From the sequence record MK047718.1: a DNA stretch of 64,000 bases; one strand, written 5' to 3'. The translations under genes and the position numbers were made by a program. The stretch is from Escherichia phage p000y. Shown here one piece after another: positions 1 through 8,417 of this stretch; the first letter of the stretch is position 1; every line of letters begins with the position of its first letter. The notes under the pieces are model-generated. The model made no database searches. It was not told where the DNA came from and worked only from the letters and a program-made list of their open reading frames with translations.

Positions 1-84
1 TCTTCAATGTAGAATGGCTATTATTAACAGTAAACGACTACCAGGAAAAGCTTCTAAAGCAGTGATTAAAATCTAGAGGTAAAC

Positions 85-627
85 ATGAGAAAAGCACTAC
101 TCGCTGGTCTATTTGCTCTTTCGTTATCAGCACATAGCTCCGAGCATACTTTTAGTAATGTCCAACTCGATAACTTGAATTATGCTTATCAGTTTGGGGA
201 ACAGTTTTCTAAGGATGGAAAATTTAAAACGCATGAAAATATGCATAAGAAAGGACTTGGATACATAATGGCCGCAATACTATGGCAGGAATCATCTGCC
301 GGTATTAATCTTAAAGATAAGAAAGGTCACCATGCGTATGGAATGTTCCAAAATTATCTACCAACAATGAGGGCAAGAATTAACCAACTTGGTTATAATA
401 TGACTGATGCCCAAATTAAGAAAATGCTATCTAAGCGGTCTAATTCAGCCAGATGGGCTTATATCGAATTTTCTTATTGGTTAAATATACATAACGGGGA
501 TATAAGAAAAGCTATATCCTCATATAATGCGGGATGGAAGACAAGTGCCGGAAGTAAATATGCTTCTGAAGTCCTAGAAAAGGCTAATTACCTTAAATCA
601 AATAAACTACTGGAAATAAAAGAATGA
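85..627 (+). CDS. Secreted lytic transglycosylase-like (lysozyme-fold) protein, 180 aa
   Basis: N-terminal signal peptide (MRKALLAGLFALSLSAHS); SLT-type motifs QESS, GMFQ and YNAG in the translation. Confidence 0.5.
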   Translation: MRKALLAGLFALSLSAHSSEHTFSNVQLDNLNYAYQFGEQFSKDGKFKTHENMHKKGLGYIMAAILWQESSAGINLKDKKGHHAYGMFQNYLPTMRARINQLGYNMTDAQIKKMLSKRSNSARWAYIEFSYWLNIHNGDIRKAISSYNAGWKTSAGSKYASEVLEKANYLKSNKLLEIKE

Positions 628-971
628 CCAAAATGTTGGCTTTAATAGTTAGCTTGGTTTCATTTAACGCTCTTGCTAATACTACATATACTGATGTAAC
701 GGAGTATACAAACAGAACGGCGTCTGATTATTGTGGTAAAAGTCAAGAGTGTAAAGTAGATTTTTCACAAAAATTGTTATATGCGTATAAAGACGGAGAA
801 AAAGACGGGGCGTCTAGTAGGTTCAAGGCGTCTACCTTAATTAAAAGATACTATAAAAAATGGCAAATATTAGAATGCTCGGTGGCGGAACCTAAAGATA
901 AGGCAGCATGCAATTCTATGGTGGACCGTCTAGTTGACTCTTATAATAGAGGACTTGCAGCAAGTGATTAA
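624..971 (+). CDS. Small secreted Cys-containing protein, 115 aa
   Basis: Signal-peptide-like N-terminus; ATGA start/stop overlap with the upstream ORF. Confidence 0.4.
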   Translation: MTKMLALIVSLVSFNALANTTYTDVTEYTNRTASDYCGKSQECKVDFSQKLLYAYKDGEKDGASSRFKASTLIKRYYKKWQILECSVAEPKDKAACNSMVDRLVDSYNRGLAASD

Positions 972-1431
972 AAACTATATCAAGGGCGATATTGTCGCCC
1001 TGTTTTCTAAAGGTAATAATATTGCTCATGGGTGTAATTGTTTTCATACAATGGGCGCCGGTGTAGCAGGCCAATTAGCAAAGGCTTATCCAAAAATTTT
1101 AGAAGCCGATAAACTTCAAACCGAATTCGGAGACAAGTCTAAACTCGGGACTTATTCGGTTTATGAAAAATATTTTAAGACCCATAAAGCTTATTGCTTT
1201 AATCTTTATACACAGTTTGAGCCGGGACCTAATTTTGAGTACTCTGCTTTAATGAATTGTATAATAGAATTAAATGAATTCGGAAAGAATAAGATAATAA
1301 AGCCTGTAATTTATATGCCAAGAATTGGTGCAGGTATTGGTGGTGGAAACTGGGATGTCATCGAAGAGATTTTAGATACGTATTCTACTAAACTAGAAAT
1401 TGTGATTGTTGATTGGGAACCGTTATTATGA
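934..1431 (+). CDS. Macro-domain (ADP-ribose binding/processing) protein
   Basis: HGCNCF...MGAGVAGQL glycine-rich loop typical of macro domains; no in-frame ATG at the 5' end, so the start is uncertain (TTG 934 or GTG 964). Confidence 0.5.
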   Translation: MTLIIEDLQQVIKNYIKGDIVALFSKGNNIAHGCNCFHTMGAGVAGQLAKAYPKILEADKLQTEFGDKSKLGTYSVYEKYFKTHKAYCFNLYTQFEPGPNFEYSALMNCIIELNEFGKNKIIKPVIYMPRIGAGIGGGNWDVIEEILDTYSTKLEIVIVDWEPLL

Positions 1432-1640
1432 ATATACATTATCCACATCCATATGACCCAAAGAATAAGGCAGTAATTATTCGTCAATGGGAACGCATTT
1501 GTCGTACCAAATGTCCAATTAATAGTCAACATGATGTAGATAAAGACTACATCGGAACATTCGTTGAATATACCTTTATTGATAAGAAAGGCCATAAACA
1601 ACATGTAGAAGAATATTGCTTAAAGGTGACATGGCTATGA
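1428..1640 (+). CDS. Hypothetical protein, 70 aa
   Basis: ATG 1428 overlaps the upstream stop (ATGA); His/Cys-containing translation. Confidence 0.4.
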   Translation: MNIHYPHPYDPKNKAVIIRQWERICRTKCPINSQHDVDKDYIGTFVEYTFIDKKGHKQHVEEYCLKVTWL

Positions 1641-1843
1641 GTCAAACAAAAATTCTTACAGGTGCTAAATGCGAAAAATGCGAATGGCCTGTAGTTTTTG
1701 CTTTATGCAATGACGAAATGGCTTGTGATTTTGATTATTGGTGTTACTGTTCGAACAAAGGTTGTAGCAATCATAAAGGTGAAGGGTTTTACTCAGGGTT
1801 TTACCCTTACCCAGATTTCGTTAAAGAAGGTGAACCTAAATGA
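1637..1843 (+). CDS. Cys-rich small protein, 68 aa (probable metal-binding)
   Basis: ATGA coupling; multiple CxxC-type pairs (CEKCEW, CYCSNKGC). Confidence 0.4.
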   Translation: MSQTKILTGAKCEKCEWPVVFALCNDEMACDFDYWCYCSNKGCSNHKGEGFYSGFYPYPDFVKEGEPK

Positions 1844-2022
1844 AATTGACTAAAGAAGAGAAAACTAAACTGTTTGAACTTATCCATGACCTATTGGATG
1901 AGCAAGCAGCCACCAATGCGTATGATGAATATGCTCCTTTGACGGACGAAGAATATCAAGCATTGTTGGAATCATTTGACAGGAAAGAACAAGAACTCAT
2001 TGACTACGTGAATTCACTATAA
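1840..2022 (+). CDS. Acidic hypothetical protein, 60 aa
   Basis: ATGA-coupled ORF immediately upstream of tk. Confidence 0.35.
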   Translation: MKLTKEEKTKLFELIHDLLDEQAATNAYDEYAPLTDEEYQALLESFDRKEQELIDYVNSL

Positions 2023-2031
2023 GGGACTCTT

Positions 2032-2613
2032 ATGGCTAGTTTAATTTTTACCTATGCCGCTATGAACGCTGGTAAGTCTGCTTCATTACTTACTGCCGCA
2101 CATAACTATAAAGAACGTGGCATGGGTGTATTAGTTCTTAAACCGGCTATTGATACTCGCGATTCAAAAGGTGAAATAGTCTCTCGTATTGGTATTCGTC
2201 AGGACGCCAATATAATTACAAAAGACATGGATATCTTTGAATTTTATAAATGGGCTGCAGCACAAAAGGATATTCACTGCGTATTTGTTGACGAAGCTCA
2301 GTTCTTAACTACTGAAAAGGTGTATCAACTTAGTCGTATTGTTGACGTGTACAATGTGCCGGTAATGGCATATGGACTACGAACAGATTTTAAAGGTAAT
2401 CTATTTGAAGGTTCTCAAGCATTAATGGCTATTGCCGATAAGCTTGTTGAACTTAAAGGTGTCTGTCATTGTGGTAAAAAGGCCACAATGGTAGCTAGAG
2501 TCACGGAAGACGGACTTCCAATTACAGATGGCAGTCAAATTGAAATTGGTGATACCGATAGATATGTGTCATTATGCCGGAAGCATTGGAATGATTTGAC
2601 AGGGTTGTTATAA
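2032..2613 (+). CDS. tk: Thymidine kinase
   Basis: 193 aa, P-loop AAMNAGKSASLL, C-terminal zinc ribbon CHCGKKA...; T4 tk family. Confidence 0.92.
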   Translation: MASLIFTYAAMNAGKSASLLTAAHNYKERGMGVLVLKPAIDTRDSKGEIVSRIGIRQDANIITKDMDIFEFYKWAAAQKDIHCVFVDEAQFLTTEKVYQLSRIVDVYNVPVMAYGLRTDFKGNLFEGSQALMAIADKLVELKGVCHCGKKATMVARVTEDGLPITDGSQIEIGDTDRYVSLCRKHWNDLTGLL

Positions 2614-2640
2614 ATACTAATATCTAACCAAGAGGTATAT

Positions 2641-2853
2641 ATGCAGCAATTAAACGAAAGACAACTTCGTAATCTTACTGTAACCCAATTAGATGAAATC
2701 CGAAGAGAATTAGGACATTCTATTTCTCATTTAAACGAGGATATCCGTCAAACTGGTTCTAAAGCTGATTATACACGCAAGCGCAAGCTGGAAAAATACC
2801 TCACAGATGTTAAGGCCGTCCAAAGGCGAAAAATAAATACTGGCCAAAATTAA
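2641..2853 (+). CDS. Hypothetical protein, 70 aa
   Basis: ORF with RBS AAGAGG upstream; sits between tk and rI as T4 rI.1 does. Confidence 0.4.
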
Positions 2854-2865
2854 CAGGAGGCCTAT

Positions 2866-3168
2866 ATGGCCTTAAGAGCGATAGCTGTCATAGCGATGCT
2901 GGGGTTTTTTGCAGCAACAACTCCTATCGTTGGTACTGCACATATCGACCCATATTTTGATAACTTTATGGAATCAGGGATTAAAAACGTATATACTTTG
3001 TTTGAAATTCAAAATGTCGAGAATTCTGAAAAATTCTATAAGTATATGGCAAAGCATTACAAAAATAGCCCCTGTGATGATGCATTTGAATGTCATGAAC
3101 AAGGCATAAAAACTGCCAGACAATTTGCCGAGTTCATGAAAATAAAATTAGAGCCTACATCTATCTAA
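2866..3168 (+). CDS. rI: Lysis inhibition regulator rI (membrane-anchored periplasmic protein)
   Basis: 100 aa; N-terminal hydrophobic anchor then DPYFDNFMESGI...; reads as a T4 rI homologue; RBS AGGAGG. Confidence 0.8.
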   Translation: MALRAIAVIAMLGFFAATTPIVGTAHIDPYFDNFMESGIKNVYTLFEIQNVENSEKFYKYMAKHYKNSPCDDAFECHEQGIKTARQFAEFMKIKLEPTSI

Positions 3169-3174
3169 TTTACT

Positions 3175-3203
3175 AGCCCCTTCCGAAAGGTCGGGGCTTT
3201 TTG
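3175..3203 (+). terminator. Rho-independent terminator after rI
   Basis: AGCCCC...GGGGCT stem with inner CC-GAAA-GG, followed by TTTTT. Confidence 0.6.
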
Positions 3204-3213
3204 GCATCTATCA

Positions 3214-3242
3214 GTTTACTTCTCCTCAGGTTGTGTTATAGT
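3214..3242 (+). promoter_or_regulatory. Early sigma70-type promoter (GTTTAC -35, TATAGT -10)
   Basis: GTTTAC 3214-3219, 17-bp spacer, TATAGT 3237-3242. Confidence 0.55.
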
Positions 3243-3269
3243 AAACCTTACTTACTAGAGGAGAACGTT

Positions 3270-3449
3270 ATGTCACGTAAAGAAAAAATTTCTAAGTTAA
3301 TGTTTTTGATTGAAGAGTACGCTAATGCGGTATCTGATTGGGAAAATGCTCATGGTTGCGAAGATGGAGACATCGACATTAACAGAGCTATGAAAAAGAT
3401 GGCCGAAGCCCACACCGAATTGCAAATGTATGTTAACGAGATTATGTGA
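3270..3449 (+). CDS. Hypothetical protein, 59 aa
   Basis: RBS GAGGAG upstream of ATG 3270. Confidence 0.4.
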   Translation: MSRKEKISKLMFLIEEYANAVSDWENAHGCEDGDIDINRAMKKMAEAHTELQMYVNEIM

Positions 3450-3456
3450 GGATATT

Positions 3457-3663
3457 ATGCTTTACGATTATACTGGAAAATCTGAAGACGGTGTACTTGA
3501 ACTTTTACCTGAAAGCGCTGAAGATGATGATATGGTGGTGATGTTTTGTAAAAATGGCCCTGGGGATAAGGGATGGATTTATCTTCGTCAAGAAAATGAC
3601 TTAATTGTTTTGGACCCTAAACAAGTTGAAGAACTTTATCAACATTTAAAACACAATCGGTAG
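3457..3663 (+). CDS. Hypothetical acidic protein, 68 aa
   Basis: RBS GTGAGG upstream of ATG 3457. Confidence 0.4.
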   Translation: MLYDYTGKSEDGVLELLPESAEDDDMVVMFCKNGPGDKGWIYLRQENDLIVLDPKQVEELYQHLKHNR

Positions 3664-3698
3664 TTTACATCTTGGTAGGACTATGTTATAGTAGTCCT
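3663..3698 (+). promoter_or_regulatory. Early promoter with embedded stem-loop (PeSL-like cassette)
   Basis: GTTTAC 3663-3668, TATAGT 3687-3692; 8-bp inverted repeat TAGGACTA/TAGTCCTA spans the -10. Confidence 0.55.
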
Positions 3699-3827
3699 AT
3701 CAAAACAAACGGAGAACAAAATGAAACTTTTGCTTATCGCTTATGTTGTAGTACAATACAATTATCCGATGTTTACTTATAACATGGTAAACGGCATAGT
3801 GAATCTTATTGAAACGAGTATGGTAAA

Positions 3828-4007
3828 ATGACCCGTGAACAAGCTAATAAATTGATGGAACTTATCCGTAACTTACGTGAAGCCGATTCAGATTTGAATG
3901 ATGTAGCTTATCATGCAGTAAATGATAACGAAGACTTTTATGAAAATCAGGTTGATGCTTGTCTGAATGATTTGGTGAATTTTGTTGAAACTTTAATTGG
4001 TGAATAA
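3828..4007 (+). CDS. Hypothetical acidic protein, 59 aa
   Basis: ORF below the track threshold; ATGA-coupled to a preceding 36-aa ORF (3721-3831) that has a strong RBS AACGGAG. Confidence 0.35.
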   Translation: MTREQANKLMELIRNLREADSDLNDVAYHAVNDNEDFYENQVDACLNDLVNFVETLIGE

Positions 4008-4008
4008 T

Positions 4009-4539
4009 ATGAAAACTGTAATTGAAACAACCGAGTTGTTTGGCGATTTATGTATCGAAAAACGTGGTTATGCTTACGTTCTGACACAAGAAGATGATGC
4101 TGTTACTATTCTTCCTATGGAACTGGACAAGATTTTGAAACTCAATCCGCCCGGCCATGCATCTGTAATTAACATTGATGAAGACCTTCAAGTTCGTTTT
4201 TATCACGGTCTTTATAGTGGGGTTAATATCGAAACAGAAGATGAATGCCTTTCTATCAATAATTGGAAAACATTCGTCACTAAGGTGAAAGAATTAATGG
4301 AATCTGAAACAGCCAAAAAGGCCAAACTTCAATGGGCTAAATGCCGTAATGCTTTTATTACAAATCAGGACCGCCCTGACTATACAACAGTCCTAGGCGT
4401 TAATCCTTCTTATGAAGACGGTGATGTCGTAGTTATTCGCCAAATTGATGACCTTCGTCAACATATCATTACATTAGACAAAGATGAAGCAGTTGCTCTT
4501 AAAGCTTATCTTGATTCTATTATCCCAACCTTGAAATAA
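4009..4539 (+). CDS. Hypothetical protein, 176 aa
   Basis: ATG 4009 (the track ORF begins at an upstream TTG). Confidence 0.45.
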   Translation: MKTVIETTELFGDLCIEKRGYAYVLTQEDDAVTILPMELDKILKLNPPGHASVINIDEDLQVRFYHGLYSGVNIETEDECLSINNWKTFVTKVKELMESETAKKAKLQWAKCRNAFITNQDRPDYTTVLGVNPSYEDGDVVVIRQIDDLRQHIITLDKDEAVALKAYLDSIIPTLK

Positions 4540-4549
4540 GGAAATTATT

Positions 4550-5023
4550 ATGATTATCAATGAAAACTCTTGGCACTTTAAAATTTATGCCACGTTTAAT
4601 AGTACATGGAATCGTCCGAAAACGTTGTGTGCTTATTTTTGGAAAACGCTAATCCCGGTATTGGCTGCTTCAATTATTGGATTTGCGATTTTAGCAGCAG
4701 TCACAATCATTGGTCAGGAAATTTTAACTAAATTCTTTGTTTTTAGCAGTCTATGGACATTAGTTCCAGCTTCAATTGGTATAGGCATTTTAACAATATC
4801 AGTAATGGTTCTTATTGCTGTCGGGGCGGTAATTGGTCCATCTTGGTTATTAGACAAATATAACGACAGAAAATATTATAAAGAAATTGAGCTCATTGCA
4901 CAAAACCAAGAACGAATTAAAAATGGACTTGAGCCTATTGAACGTAAGAAATCATTAATAGGTGAATACATTAAAGCTCGTAAAGAAAAAGTCTGTCCTA
5001 CTCTTGAATATAAGGCTAAATGA
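4550..5023 (+). CDS. Integral membrane protein, 157 aa
   Basis: Several long hydrophobic segments (LIPVLAASIIGFAILAAVTIIG..., LVPASIGIGILTISVMVLIAVGAVIG). Confidence 0.5.
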   Translation: MIINENSWHFKIYATFNSTWNRPKTLCAYFWKTLIPVLAASIIGFAILAAVTIIGQEILTKFFVFSSLWTLVPASIGIGILTISVMVLIAVGAVIGPSWLLDKYNDRKYYKEIELIAQNQERIKNGLEPIERKKSLIGEYIKARKEKVCPTLEYKAK

Positions 5024-6009
5024 TGAAAACAATTATGAAAGGCTACTTTGGTAGCCACCTTTATGGAACGTCTACTCCTGAATCTGACGTCGATTTTAAA
5101 GAAATTTATGTCCCTCATGCTCGTGATATCTTGACCGGTAACGTTAAAGAACACATGAGCAAGAACACTAACAACACTGCTTCTAAGAACACAAAAGACG
5201 ACGTGGACCATGAGTTGTATAGTCTCAAATATTTCTTTAAACTAGCTGCAGATGGTGAAACCGTCGCATTAGATATGCTTCACACCCCACAAAGTCTAGT
5301 AGTTAAATCTGATTTGCCTGATGTATGGAAGTATATTCAAGATAACAGGTCTCGTTTCTATACCACTAACATGAAATCTTATTTAGGGTATGTCCGTAAG
5401 CAAGCTTCTAAATATGGTGTCAAGGGTTCTCGACTGGCTGTTCTTCGTCAAGCCCTTAAACGTTCTAATGAATGGGGACAATACTTTGATAATGGTGCAG
5501 TAATTCGTTTATCACATATGAAGAACGTTCTGCCTGTAGGTGAATTTGCTTCATGGGTTGAAACCGAAAACGAGAAAACAGGTAAGCAAACATTCTATAA
5601 TCTGTTGGACCGTAAATTCCAAGACACGTTAACCAATAAAGAGTTCAATGCCATCCTGGTTAAACTGGAAGAGAACTATGGTGAACGTGCTCGTAAGGCG
5701 GAAGCCAACGAAGGTATTGACTGGAAAGCATTGAGTCATGCATGTCGTGGTGGACTTCAACTATTGGAAATTTATAAAACCGGTGACTTGGTTTACCCAC
5801 TTCAGGATGCTCCATTTATTCTCGATGTTAAGCTTGGTAAACATACGTTTAAAACTGTACAAGAATTCCTAGAAGATATTGTTGACCAAGTTGAACATGC
5901 GTCAGAACAAGCTGCCAAGAATGGTATGCAACAAAAAGTAGATATGAGTTTCTGGGATGATTTCCTTGAGCAAGTCTATCTCGAAAATCATAATTCTTAC
6001 TATAAATAA
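5020..6009 (+). CDS. Pol-beta-superfamily nucleotidyltransferase-fold protein, 329 aa
   Basis: GS-x(n)-DhD motif GSHLYGTSTPESDVDF plus a downstream acidic ETVALDML, the hallmark of minimal NTases; ATGA-coupled to the membrane protein. Confidence 0.5.
   Translation: MMKTIMKGYFGSHLYGTSTPESDVDFKEIYVPHARDILTGNVKEHMSKNTNNTASKNTKDDVDHELYSLKYFFKLAADGETVALDMLHTPQSLVVKSDLPDVWKYIQDNRSRFYTTNMKSYLGYVRKQASKYGVKGSRLAVLRQALKRSNEWGQYFDNGAVIRLSHMKNVLPVGEFASWVETENEKTGKQTFYNLLDRKFQDTLTNKEFNAILVKLEENYGERARKAEANEGIDWKALSHACRGGLQLLEIYKTGDLVYPLQDAPFILDVKLGKHTFKTVQEFLEDIVDQVEHASEQAAKNGMQQKVDMSFWDDFLEQVYLENHNSYYK
6001..6008 (+). promoter_or_regulatory. Candidate late promoter (TATAAATA)
   Basis: Exact TATAAATA about 33 nt upstream of the 6041 start. 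Confidence 0.35.
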
Positions 6010-6040
6010 ATAGATAAATAACCATTCACTTGAGGTAAAT

Positions 6041-6307
6041 ATGAAAAAATTAGTAATTGGTTTATTCGCAGTAATGATGGCGTTCTCTGTTGGTGCTACC
6101 ACGGGTGCAGGAGCTGGTGGTAACCAGTCTTCTGGGCCTTCCAATGGTTCGGTAAATGCATCACATTCTCAGGGTATTGAGAATATCAAATCAAGCTATA
6201 TTAATAGCACGGCTGGACAAGCAACTGAAGCATGGTCAAAGGGCCGAGTAGTTACTCACTCTGTATTCTGTGATATGCCTAATTATGTTGCTAAGTGCGA
6301 TAAGTAA
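6041..6307 (+). CDS. Small secreted Gly/Ser-rich protein, 88 aa
   Basis: Signal peptide MKKLVIGLFAVMMAFSVGA; RBS TGAGG. Confidence 0.5.
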   Translation: MKKLVIGLFAVMMAFSVGATTGAGAGGNQSSGPSNGSVNASHSQGIENIKSSYINSTAGQATEAWSKGRVVTHSVFCDMPNYVAKCDK

Positions 6308-6311
6308 ATGT

Positions 6312-6333
6312 GGGGACCTTCGGGTCCCTTTAG
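6312..6333 (+). terminator. Rho-independent terminator (UUCG tetraloop hairpin)
   Basis: GGGACC-TTCG-GGTCCC followed by TTT. Confidence 0.6.
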
Positions 6334-6358
6334 GGGGTTAAAATATTTTAAAAAAGTA

Positions 6359-6387
6359 GTGTACATGCTTTTAGGATATGTTATTAT
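6359..6387 (+). promoter_or_regulatory. Early promoter (GTGTAC -35, TATTAT -10)
   Basis: 17-bp spacing; followed by the TATAGACCTATC element. Confidence 0.5.
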
Positions 6388-6425
6388 AGACCTATCGAAA
6401 CGAAATGAGTAAATTGGAGAATAAA

Positions 6426-7406
6426 ATGTTCAACGTTCAAATCAAAAAAGGTATCTATCGTAATAACGAAATCTCTGGATCTTATGTCGCCACAAAGACA
6501 TGGTTCCCAGCAAAGCTTAATCCTGAATGTTCCCACTTAGGTGATGGTAAAATTTTCGTTATGATTGATGGTTCTGAACGTGGAGTATGGGTCTTCAAAT
6601 CAGACATCGTAATGGAAGGAGTTGAGACATCACCAGTTGCAGTTGTTGAAAGCACTGAAGATATGAAAACTCGTATCAACAAACGCTTTAAAGTAATGAA
6701 CATGATGACGAATGGCATTATCGATGGCAAAATTCGTTCACTCATCATTTCAGGTGCAGCCGGTATTGGTAAGACGTATTCTCTGGATAAAGCACTTAAT
6801 AATGCTAATGATAATGGTTTCATCAAATACAAAAGCATTAATGGTAAAATCTCTGGTATCGGCCTTTACGAACAACTTTGGCTCAACCGTGATGCAGACA
6901 GCGTTCTCTTAATCGACGATGTTGATGTATTCTCTGATATGGATATCTTGAACCTTCTTAAAGCAGCATTAGATACCGGAGATAAACGCAAAGTTTGTTG
7001 GAGCACTGCGTCATCTTATCTTGATGATAAGGGTATTGATAAAGAATTTGAGTTTGAAGGTACTATCGTTTTCATTACAAACGTTGATATCGATAAAGAG
7101 TTAGAACGTGGTTCGAAACTTGCCCCACACCTTCAAGCTTTAGTATCTCGTTCAGTGTATCTCGACCTTGGAGTACACTCTAATGAAGAGATTATGGTTC
7201 GAGTTGAAGACGTAATATTATCTACTGACATGATGCAGAAACGTGGTCTGACTGATGCTGAAACGTACAAAGCATTGTCCTGGATGAAGGCTAACGTATC
7301 TCGTCTTCGCAATGTATCATTACGTACGGCTCTTTATGTAGCAGATTTTATTTCAACTGATAAAGATGGTTGGGAGGAAATCTCCGAAGTAACTTTACTG
7401 AAATAA
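6426..7406 (+). CDS. AAA+/P-loop ATPase, about 326 aa
   Basis: Walker A GAAGIGKT and Walker B LLIDDVD; start placed at ATG 6426 with RBS GGAG (the track ORF starts at 6405). Confidence 0.55.
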   Translation: MFNVQIKKGIYRNNEISGSYVATKTWFPAKLNPECSHLGDGKIFVMIDGSERGVWVFKSDIVMEGVETSPVAVVESTEDMKTRINKRFKVMNMMTNGIIDGKIRSLIISGAAGIGKTYSLDKALNNANDNGFIKYKSINGKISGIGLYEQLWLNRDADSVLLIDDVDVFSDMDILNLLKAALDTGDKRKVCWSTASSYLDDKGIDKEFEFEGTIVFITNVDIDKELERGSKLAPHLQALVSRSVYLDLGVHSNEEIMVRVEDVILSTDMMQKRGLTDAETYKALSWMKANVSRLRNVSLRTALYVADFISTDKDGWEEISEVTLLK

Positions 7407-7543
7407 GCTTATAGGAAGTTCTGAGGTAACAAAAGCCATAAAGATGAATAATCATATGGCTTACCTCAAAGAAGGACACCAGGAACCTACTGAGGGCATA
7501 GAAATATTTAAAATAATGATGTACAAATCAAAGAGGATATGTT

Positions 7544-7831
7544 ATGGATTTTATGCAAAAAATTAAAGCCGCAGTCGAACTCTATGCTCATCGTATAGTT
7601 AGTTCTACGATGCAATATAGCGAGGAGGTTCGCCAGGACTCTTCCTTGAAAGGAAAAACTAAAGCCTTAATTACCTTAGATCGTTTGCAAAAGAATGCCA
7701 TAGAGATGCTCCAGTACGACAAGGGTGTATATAAGAAAGAACAGGAAGAGAAACTTAAATCTGAAAAATTACAAAAAATCCCGAAGTCTGTTTGGTTCAG
7801 TGGAAAAAATACCGAAAAAAGTTTCTTTTAG
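7544..7831 (+). CDS. Hypothetical protein, 95 aa
   Basis: RBS AGAGGA upstream of ATG. Confidence 0.4.
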   Translation: MDFMQKIKAAVELYAHRIVSSTMQYSEEVRQDSSLKGKTKALITLDRLQKNAIEMLQYDKGVYKKEQEEKLKSEKLQKIPKSVWFSGKNTEKSFF

Positions 7832-7833
7832 TT

Positions 7834-7868
7834 GTTTACAAGGTCTATGGTTATGTTATTATAGACCT
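7834..7868 (+). promoter_or_regulatory. Early promoter with stem-loop (PeSL-like)
   Basis: GTTTAC 7834-7839, TATTAT 7857-7862; inverted repeat AGGTCTAT/ATAGACCT. Confidence 0.55.
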
Positions 7869-7889
7869 ATCAACTACTGGAGGTAAAAC

Positions 7890-8417
7890 ATGAACGCTAA
7901 AGATATTTTCAACCTGGTAAATTATAACGACGGTAAATTTAAATCTGAAGCACAAAGCAAGTTCTTTAACGATGTTGCTTATGGTAACGAGATTACCGTG
8001 GATGGAGGTCAGATTTTCAAATCTCGCTGGAATTGGATTGTTATCATCGATTCAGTTGGAATTGTGGAAGTCTACAAAAACACTAACAAAAAACGTACAT
8101 TATTCTGGTCTCGTGAAACTAACGAGCAGTACAAAAAGGATAAAGCATCTCGTTTATCCAAAGTAACCCAGGAAGATATCGACTTCATCAAGAAAGATAT
8201 CGAGATGTACGAAAATTTAATTGCTGAAGACCAGGCAGTACTCGATAAGTTTGATGAAATTAAAGCTTCTCGTGAAATCCCTGACTTCATGAAAGAAACA
8301 GTAAACGAACGATACGCTCTCACTTCAGAACGTATTGCAAACTACACAAAACAGAAAGCAGAACGTATTAGTACTCTTCGGAAATTTGAAGAACGTTTAA
8401 AGACGGTTCACGCATAA
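7890..8417 (+). CDS. Hypothetical protein, 175 aa
   Basis: RBS GGAGG upstream; C-terminal coiled-coil-like region. Confidence 0.45.
   Translation: MNAKDIFNLVNYNDGKFKSEAQSKFFNDVAYGNEITVDGGQIFKSRWNWIVIIDSVGIVEVYKNTNKKRTLFWSRETNEQYKKDKASRLSKVTQEDIDFIKKDIEMYENLIAEDQAVLDKFDEIKASREIPDFMKETVNERYALTSERIANYTKQKAERISTLRKFEERLKTVHA

Follow-up and report, generated by a model that had tools for sequence, protein, structure and literature searches.

An RlaP-family nucleotidyltransferase of Escherichia phage p000y, the ortholog of T4 NrdC.11, and its putative role in RNA 3'-end repair

A nucleotidyltransferase (NTase) gene was analyzed in a stretch of 64,000 nucleotides from Escherichia phage p000y (sequence record MK047718.1), which is referred to below as the window. 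This gene is orthologous to T4 nrdC.11 and has kept its place in the tk-nrdC block; its product is, as judged from its sequence, a Pol-beta-fold NTase of the RlaP (RNA-ligase-associated Pol-beta) family with a predicted intact set of catalytic residues. The genes of the bacterial homologs of NrdC.11 share operons with those of enzymes that heal and seal RNA ends. By analogy with characterized RlaPs, there is a slightly better than even chance that the NrdC.11 ortholog extends damaged RNA 3' ends before ligation by the phage Pnkp/Rnl1 system. The gene, the family, and the predicted role are already known from databases and papers (Iyer et al. 2021; Carruthers et al. 2025). The present analysis adds a clear distinction between the long (NrdC.11-type) subtype and the short RlaPs, the frequent tandems of long and short types in bacterial RNA-repair operons, and the hypervariable central module of the phage proteins.

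Orthology, family membership, and architecture

The window protein is 78% identical to T4 NrdC.11 (NP_049709) by tblastn and 77.4% identical over 337 columns in a full-length alignment, and PHROG 388 ("nucleotidyltransferase") matches residues 1 to 329 end to end with an E value of 6.9e-126. The gene slot is also kept, lying between homologs of mobD.1 (y05I) and nrdC.10 in both phages; the order in T4 is mobD.1, the homing endonuclease gene mobD, nrdC.11, and nrdC.10. The phage is a T4-like Mosigvirus, and this synteny bears out the placement of the gene in its accessory tk-nrdC block, a position that had been proposed in an earlier note on this DNA. The protein begins with MMKTIMKGYFGSHLYGTSTPESDVDFKE, and an alternative ATG at position 5023, which is the start used by T4 and most database orthologs, gives a product of 328 amino acids (aa). 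The DNA of positions 4000 to 8000 is 97 to 98% identical to that of Mosigvirus genomes such as APCEc01 and JK36. The APCEc01 counterpart, APCEc01_204, is annotated as "nucleotidyltransferase," and database proteins of that name share 99 to 100% identity with the window NTase. In total, the NTase was found by tblastn in 1573 phage records, chiefly of T4-like phages, whose hosts include Escherichia, Klebsiella, Shigella, Aeromonas, Acinetobacter, and Vibrio and which belong to Straboviridae wherever the record taxonomy was checked. Many GenBank phage records call the NrdC.11 orthologs and several nrdC.x neighbors "thioredoxin," a label that seems to be an annotation error propagated from the gene-name prefix.

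The Pfam RlaP model (PF10127) scores 49.2 bits with the window protein, well over its gathering score of 23 (E value of 7.1e-13), the match spanning model positions 23 to 148 of 249 only. A protein-homolog search with the NTase gave only proteins that are at least 98% identical, and the diversity of the family was taken from a HMMER search against representatives of 50%-identity clusters. This search retrieved 3229 cluster representatives at an E value of ≤1e-3 and 739 at ≤1e-30; the best 150 of these relatives are nearly all 300 to 350 aa long and align over their full length. When the window protein is aligned to 88 relatives (89 sequences, 34 to 53% identity), the invariant columns are G11, S12, S22, D23, D25, N57, D63, Y132, K236, R243, and G273, and the columns that are at least 90% conserved include D61, D85, and H240, among others. 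No match was found in an NCBIfam search of the NTase, and no relevant relative was returned from the PDB when it was searched by sequence with the protein itself and with profiles of the long and short families.

The GS-x10-DVD motif that the earlier note had read in this open reading frame (ORF) is present as G11-S12, followed after ten residues by D23-V24-D25. In a profile-profile comparison (hhalign) of the long family with 13 canonical short RlaPs, D23, D25, and D63 pair with the invariant D49, D51, and D88 of the short proteins, and D85 pairs with their invariant E110. The predicted catalytic triad consists of G11-S12, D23 and D25, and D63, with D63 assigned as the third catalytic carboxylate since it is invariant, opens the strand of residues 62 to 68, and aligns with the third Asp of the canonical proteins. 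The earlier note had pointed to the acid in ETVALDML (residues 80 to 87) for this position. That residue, D85, is not the third carboxylate but appears to be a real fourth acidic residue of the whole family, in view of its conservation and its alignment with an invariant Glu. The T4 homolog, NrdC.11, has the same catalytic residues as the window protein, whereas the earlier note would have been refuted by clear homology to a T4 protein without them. Together, the PF10127 and PHROG 388 matches and the invariant residues uphold the prediction of a Pol-beta-fold NTase.

An AlphaFold2 (AF2) model computed from the 89-sequence alignment has a mean predicted local distance difference test (pLDDT) score of 93.3 and a predicted template modeling (pTM) score of 0.83. 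In this model, the NTase core (residues ~1 to 118) is followed by helices (residues 119 to 155), a three-stranded beta insertion (residues ~177 to 201), and a helical bundle (residues 206 to 228, 235 to 254, 277 to 300, and 309 to 328). The protein had been described as a minimal NTase with no obvious partner domain, a description that does not hold for residues ~119 to 329, which are modeled as a conserved helical domain. The identity to T4 NrdC.11 is a mosaic, with 89% in residues 1 to 140, 43% in residues 141 to 215, and 90% in residues 216 to 329. Residues 141 to 215 are also the least conserved stretch of the whole family alignment, and this central module could be a specificity or arms-race module. 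The positions of these elements are given in Table 1 together with those of the neighboring genes.

Table 1. Positions in the window of the NTase gene, its predicted elements, and its neighbors
Feature	Position (nt)	Strand	Description
NTase gene (NrdC.11 ortholog, long-type RlaP)	5020..6009	+	329 aa, ATG start; ORF list
N-terminal Pol-beta NTase core	5020..5373	+	Residues ~1-118; predicted from invariant columns and AF2 model
G11-S12	5050-5055	+	Invariant in the 89-sequence alignment
D23-V24-D25	5086-5094	+	D23 and D25 invariant; ten residues after G11-S12
D63	5206-5208	+	Invariant; start of strand 62-68
D85	5272-5274	+	At least 90% conserved; in a helix
Hypervariable central module	5440..5664	+	Residues 141-215; helices and three-stranded beta insertion
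Conserved C-terminal helical domain	5665..6006	+	Residues 216-329
Motif N-x-G-x-D-W-K-A-x-S-H-A-x-R	5707-5748	+	Residues 230-243; K236 and R243 invariant
y05I/mobD.1 homolog	3997-4539		Followed by the membrane-protein gene
Membrane-protein gene	4550..5023	+	157 aa; PHROG 944 ("membrane protein"); neighbor, probably not a functional part
Small secreted-protein gene	6041-6307	+	88 aa; PHROG 2243; between the NTase gene and the nrdC.10 homolog
nrdC.10 homolog	6405-7406	+	PHROG 1250; 77% identical to T4

Bacterial relatives in RNA-repair operons

The gene contexts of the family were investigated in 80 bacterial and archaeal loci that encode full-length relatives with 33 to 52% identity, with one genome per prokaryotic species. 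ORFs were called, shadow ORFs were removed, the remaining proteins were clustered by BLASTP, and the cluster representatives were searched with Pfam. The recurrent neighbors are Pnkp, Hen1 (PF12623), RtcB (PF01139), Ro60/TROVE (PF05731), and a ResIII-type helicase; the bacterial Pnkp contains kinase, phosphatase, and PNKP_ligase domains (PF16542, E value of 2.4e-172). Pnkp, Hen1, RtcB, or Ro60 occurs within 6 kb of the relative in 18 of the 80 loci; most of these genes share its strand, and their stop and start codons often overlap. The order is Hen1, Pnkp, long RlaP, and short RlaP in locus L050, and in locus L027 it is Ro60, RtcB, other genes, long RlaP, short RlaP, Hen1, other genes, and Pnkp. 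These four proteins account for 31 of about 780 non-RlaP ORFs in the 80 loci, which is a strong enrichment, since their genes are at most single-copy genes among thousands per genome. No conserved membrane partner was found in the 80 loci.

A canonical short RlaP (255 to 290 aa) is encoded directly downstream of the long type in 20 of the 80 loci, which include L011, L013, L019, L023, L027, L029, L040, L050, L052, L054, L059, L066, L078, L079, L082, and L085. The short RlaPs of these tandems match PF10127 over its whole length, with E values of 1e-51 to 1e-62. The stop and start codons of the pairs often overlap, and several pairs lie inside the operons with Pnkp, Hen1, RtcB, or Ro60. The hhalign alignment of the long type to the short type is confined to the N-terminal ~90 residues (probability of 94.5%, E value of 8e-8), with no sequence homology detected by this method beyond residue ~94, which suggests that the tandem is a two-enzyme module with distinct roles. 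Because the alignment is limited to these residues, NrdC.11 is regarded as a distinct "long" RlaP subtype. Short RlaPs are also encoded by jumbo phages (phiKZ-like and others), and none of the 80 phage records that match a short RlaP is that of an Escherichia phage.

Putative RNA 3'-end repair and alternative explanations

Two Pseudomonas RlaPs, from P. fluorescens and P. aeruginosa, add one or two nucleoside monophosphates (NMP), or their deoxy forms (dNMP), to RNA 3'-OH ends, with little nucleoside triphosphate (NTP) specificity and a preference for Mn2+ (bioRxiv 10.64898/2025.12.29.696909). They are inactive on DNA and E. coli proteins, favor the broken end of a cleaved-tRNA mimic, and partly restore aminoacylation to a tRNA missing one nucleotide of its anticodon loop (bioRxiv 10.64898/2025.12.29.696909). 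In the same study, T4 NrdC.11 was placed in cluster 5 of the RlaP network, with "unknown function" (Carruthers, Fatma, Huang, bioRxiv 10.64898/2025.12.29.696909). Phage RlaPs were previously predicted to put back, ahead of ligation, the nucleotides that RloC-type nucleases remove (Iyer et al. 2021, PMC7824862), and the papers that cite Burroughs and Aravind (2016) trace both the family name and the repair prediction to that work.

In the mechanism proposed for the window NTase, D23, D25, and D63 would hold two metal ions, probably Mn2+, and the enzyme would extend broken RNA at its 3'-OH by one or two nucleotides without a template. It would act mainly on tRNA anticodon loops that have lost a nucleotide to a host ribotoxin, e.g., RloC. 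The phage Pnkp (PseT) would heal the ends before nucleotide addition, and Rnl1, a 5'-P/3'-OH ligase and thus compatible with the extended end, would reseal a full-length, usable tRNA. The benefit would be greatest against nucleases that excise a nucleotide. We infer RNA 3' ends as the substrate by extrapolation from the two Pseudomonas RlaPs, which belong to another subcluster, and likewise infer both the cooperation with PseT and Rnl1 and which host toxin the enzyme counters. PseT and Rnl1 of T4 were the first RNA-repair system to be discovered, and it has been argued that nucleotide-excising nucleases such as RloC defeat their repair; an enzyme that restores a nucleotide before ligation would close this gap. 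The central module could set which damaged tRNA gets patched, a role that is likelier than the HalB-like oligonucleotide synthesis considered below. If true, NrdC.11 would be the phage countermeasure that has long been sought against RloC and other wobble-excising nucleases.

The presence of the bacterial homologs in RNA-repair operons points to RNA-end repair rather than nucleotide signaling. In addition, T4 mutants without the region from nrdC.11 to mobD.3 are viable (PMC9825161), and this dispensability fits an accessory or conditional counter-defense gene. The window gene had been put forward as an anti-defense or signaling candidate; the anti-defense half of that proposal is compatible with these observations, whereas the signaling half is disfavored by the operons of the homologs. 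On the phage side, APCEc01, with 97.5% identical DNA, encodes both RNA ligase 1 (Rnl1) and polynucleotide kinase. The numbers of phage records with Pnkp and with NrdC.11, respectively, run parallel across host genera, with 635 and 644 for Escherichia, 286 and 295 for Klebsiella, 83 and 83 for Shigella, 77 and 75 for Aeromonas, 70 and 69 for Acinetobacter, and 56 and 56 for Enterobacter, which is consistent with co-occurrence. A weak hint of a link between the homolog and tRNA ends comes from two phages without a close relationship to T4. Rheinheimera phage Barba19A (locus L003, positions 4247 to 6900) encodes a CCA-adding-type enzyme (PF01743 plus HD) two genes upstream of the homolog, and Aeromonas phage AS-sw (locus L089, positions 1 to 5969) has a gene for a putative tRNA nucleotidyltransferase ~4 kb upstream of it. 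In three other phages, namely, Vibrio phage nt-1 and the jumbo phages Hallingskeid and fENko-Kae01, the genes that flank the homolog mostly encode hypothetical proteins, and none next to it is annotated as an RNA-repair gene.

Several observations weigh against a role in RNA 3'-end repair. RNA-repair neighbors are present in only 18 of the 80 bacterial loci, and pseT and rnlA are not adjacent to the NTase gene, from which they are ~80 kb away in APCEc01. The parallel counts of Pnkp and NrdC.11 in T4-like phages are confounded by shared ancestry. The characterized RlaPs are of the short type and belong to cluster 1a, versus cluster 5 for the T4 protein (bioRxiv 10.64898/2025.12.29.696909). The limited alignment of long and short types indicates that their substrate-binding C-terminal halves may differ, and the occurrence of both types in bacterial tandems indicates that they are not redundant. 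Moreover, a close fold that has been solved, HalB, is that of a DNA-synthesizing NTase and not of an RNA enzyme. The confidence placed in RNA 3'-end repair was discounted for three of these points, namely, measurements on the short type only, the differing C-terminal half, and the non-redundant roles implied by the tandems.

One alternative is an RNA 3'-end NTase that acts outside break repair, by topping up CCA ends or by tailing RNA and thereby altering the stability of host or phage RNA. The known RlaP reaction, in which any RNA 3'-OH receives one or two NMP with little NTP specificity, would permit such an activity, and the homologs of Barba19A and AS-sw lie near a CCA-type enzyme. However, these adjacencies are single cases in long early-gene blocks, and the bacterial homologs associate with Pnkp, Hen1, and RtcB, not with CCA enzymes, which makes this alternative unlikely. 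T4 tRNA maturation relies on the CCA enzyme of the host, which speaks against a substitute encoded by the phage. Another alternative is suggested by the fold comparisons. The best match of the model in a Foldseek search against the PDB is kanamycin nucleotidyltransferase (E value of 2.3e-3, probability of 0.99, template modeling [TM] score of about 0.30), and the weaker matches are 3c18 (an uncharacterized NTase-like protein), Hailong HalB, LinB, AAD(9), ANT(4')-IIb, and the MNT antitoxin. Kanamycin nucleotidyltransferase and 3c18, the best of these matches, as well as LinB, AAD(9), ANT(4')-IIb, and the MNT antitoxin, have the same layout of an NTase core and a HEPN-like helical bundle, and the window NTase might nucleotidylylate a protein or small molecule, as do DrrA, GlnE, the aminoglycoside and lincosamide NTases, and the MNT antitoxins that AMPylate HEPN toxins, and so inactivate a host defense protein or metabolite. 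This explanation is improbable, given the low TM score, identities of 8 to 10% with the antibiotic NTases and 18% with the MNT antitoxin, the RlaP membership by sequence, and the finding that characterized RlaPs left E. coli proteins and DNA unlabeled. The kinship with MNT that the earlier note had suggested is not supported either, in that the MNT antitoxin (7ae9_G) matches at an E value of only 0.24, the window protein of 329 aa carries a helical domain fused to its NTase core, the genes next to it encode a membrane protein and a small secreted protein and not a HEPN toxin, and the NTase matched none of the PADLOC defense models, among them those for CD-NTase and MNT-type proteins.

A template-independent polymerase like HalB, which would make an oligonucleotide (e.g., oligo-dA) as a decoy or signal, is very improbable. 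Such an enzyme might act with the coupled membrane protein and would possibly be a phage counterpart or antagonist of Hailong-type defense. The Hailong system pairs the membrane protein HalA with the NTase HalB (PMC13434031), and in the window, a membrane-protein gene overlaps the start of the NTase gene. Nevertheless, no sequence similarity to PDB chains, including HalB, was detected even with the family profile, and the bacterial homologs are found in RNA-repair operons and not beside membrane effectors. The model of the membrane protein has no HalA fold match, its best hit in the PDB with Foldseek having an E value of 6.3 with nothing significant, although this negative result is soft because the model is weak (pLDDT of 70, pTM of 0.42). 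A Hailong-like pair was also considered as the principal explanation and was rejected, since no homolog of the membrane gene was detected in the 20-kb stretch of T4 that surrounds nrdC.11, ICP1 and Pseudomonas phages carry this gene independently, and the bacterial loci share no conserved membrane partner. Least credible of all is a synthase of cyclic or linear nucleotide second messengers related to CD-NTases, cGAS, or OAS, which has in its favor the generic GS...DxD...D Pol-beta signature only. The kinship with CD-NTases, OAS, and Cid1 raised in the earlier note found no support, as PADLOC gave no match to CBASS or other systems, neither fold-match list contains a cGAS, CD-NTase, or OAS chain, and Cid1 (4ep7) and CutA reached Foldseek probabilities of only 0.08 and 0.05 to 0.07, respectively, with TM scores of 0.11 to 0.13. 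The C-terminal domain, moreover, is a helical bundle, and the proteins that it matches include no cGAS, OAS, or PAP enzyme. The earlier interpretation is thus partly supported, in that an apparently active NTase with a plausible counter-defense role is predicted from the sequence, and was wrong on the family, the second domain, and the third carboxylate. RNA 3'-end repair before Pnkp/Rnl1 ligation is the explanation retained here.

Neighboring genes and comparison with known systems

The neighbors of the NTase gene do not look like functional partners. The stop codon of the upstream membrane-protein ORF (TGA, positions 5021 to 5023) overlaps the NTase start (ATGATG), and the membrane-protein gene is translationally coupled to the NTase gene. 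The membrane protein was found in 1223 phage records, including those of ICP1 and Pseudomonas phages, some of them without an adjacent NTase gene. Its N terminus (MIINxNxWH...RPxxLCxYFW) and C terminus (KARKxKxCP) are invariant and contain two invariant cysteines, and among close relatives, the membrane protein is about 81 to 100% identical and the NTase 98 to 100% identical. The small secreted protein has a signal-peptide-like N terminus and a Gly/Ser-rich region, and its gene is followed by a terminator-like hairpin at positions 6323 to 6339. The earlier note had placed the NTase gene next to a membrane protein and an AAA+ ATPase. The membrane gene does adjoin it, but the AAA+ label of the nrdC.10 ortholog is unproven, as its P-loop matches (AAA_22, AAA_16, and nSTAND3) are below threshold; this protein also shows a weak HTH_37-like C-terminal match. 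Upstream, RefSeq names a 59-aa ORF at positions 3828 to 4007 "helicase loader," which looks like an annotation error. A promoter and terminator scan gave nothing above shuffle expectation, and no tRNA genes or Rfam families at the gathering threshold were found across the 64-kb window (positions 1 to 64000).

The closest known counterpart of the window NTase is T4 NrdC.11, which is named "uncharacterised 38.9 kDa protein in the nrdC-mobD region" and is called "nucleotidyltransferase" in RefSeq. The two loci differ in that T4 carries mobD directly upstream of nrdC.11, where the window phage carries the membrane-protein gene, and in that no homolog of the membrane protein or of the small secreted protein encoded downstream in the window phage was detected in 20 kb of T4 around nrdC.11; the central module of the window protein is 8 residues shorter. 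Kanamycin nucleotidyltransferase ANT(4') and the other antibiotic NTases share the layout of an NTase core with a HEPN-like helical domain, but they act on small molecules and belong to another family. Hailong HalB (PDB 9dbh/9dbj), a tyrosine-primed oligodeoxyadenylate synthase of 217 aa from an anti-phage system, is, like the window protein by prediction, a template-independent Pol-beta NTase with a helical domain, and its gene likewise adjoins a membrane-protein gene. However, the identity of HalB is 16% with no sequence-level relationship, the gene contexts of the homologs are unlike, and its partner HalA bears no resemblance to the window membrane protein. Compared with the short RlaPs of PF10127 (255 to 290 aa), the long type is larger (~320 to 330 aa) and has a beta insertion and another C-terminal motif. 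Both types share the GS / DxD / D triad with a conserved acidic residue in the next helix, an NTase domain followed by a helical domain, and homologs in operons with RtcB or Pnkp/Hen1. The crystal structure of PfRlaP, as described (bioRxiv 10.64898/2025.12.29.696909), likewise consists of an NTase domain and a C-terminal helical domain, as modeled here for the NrdC.11 ortholog.

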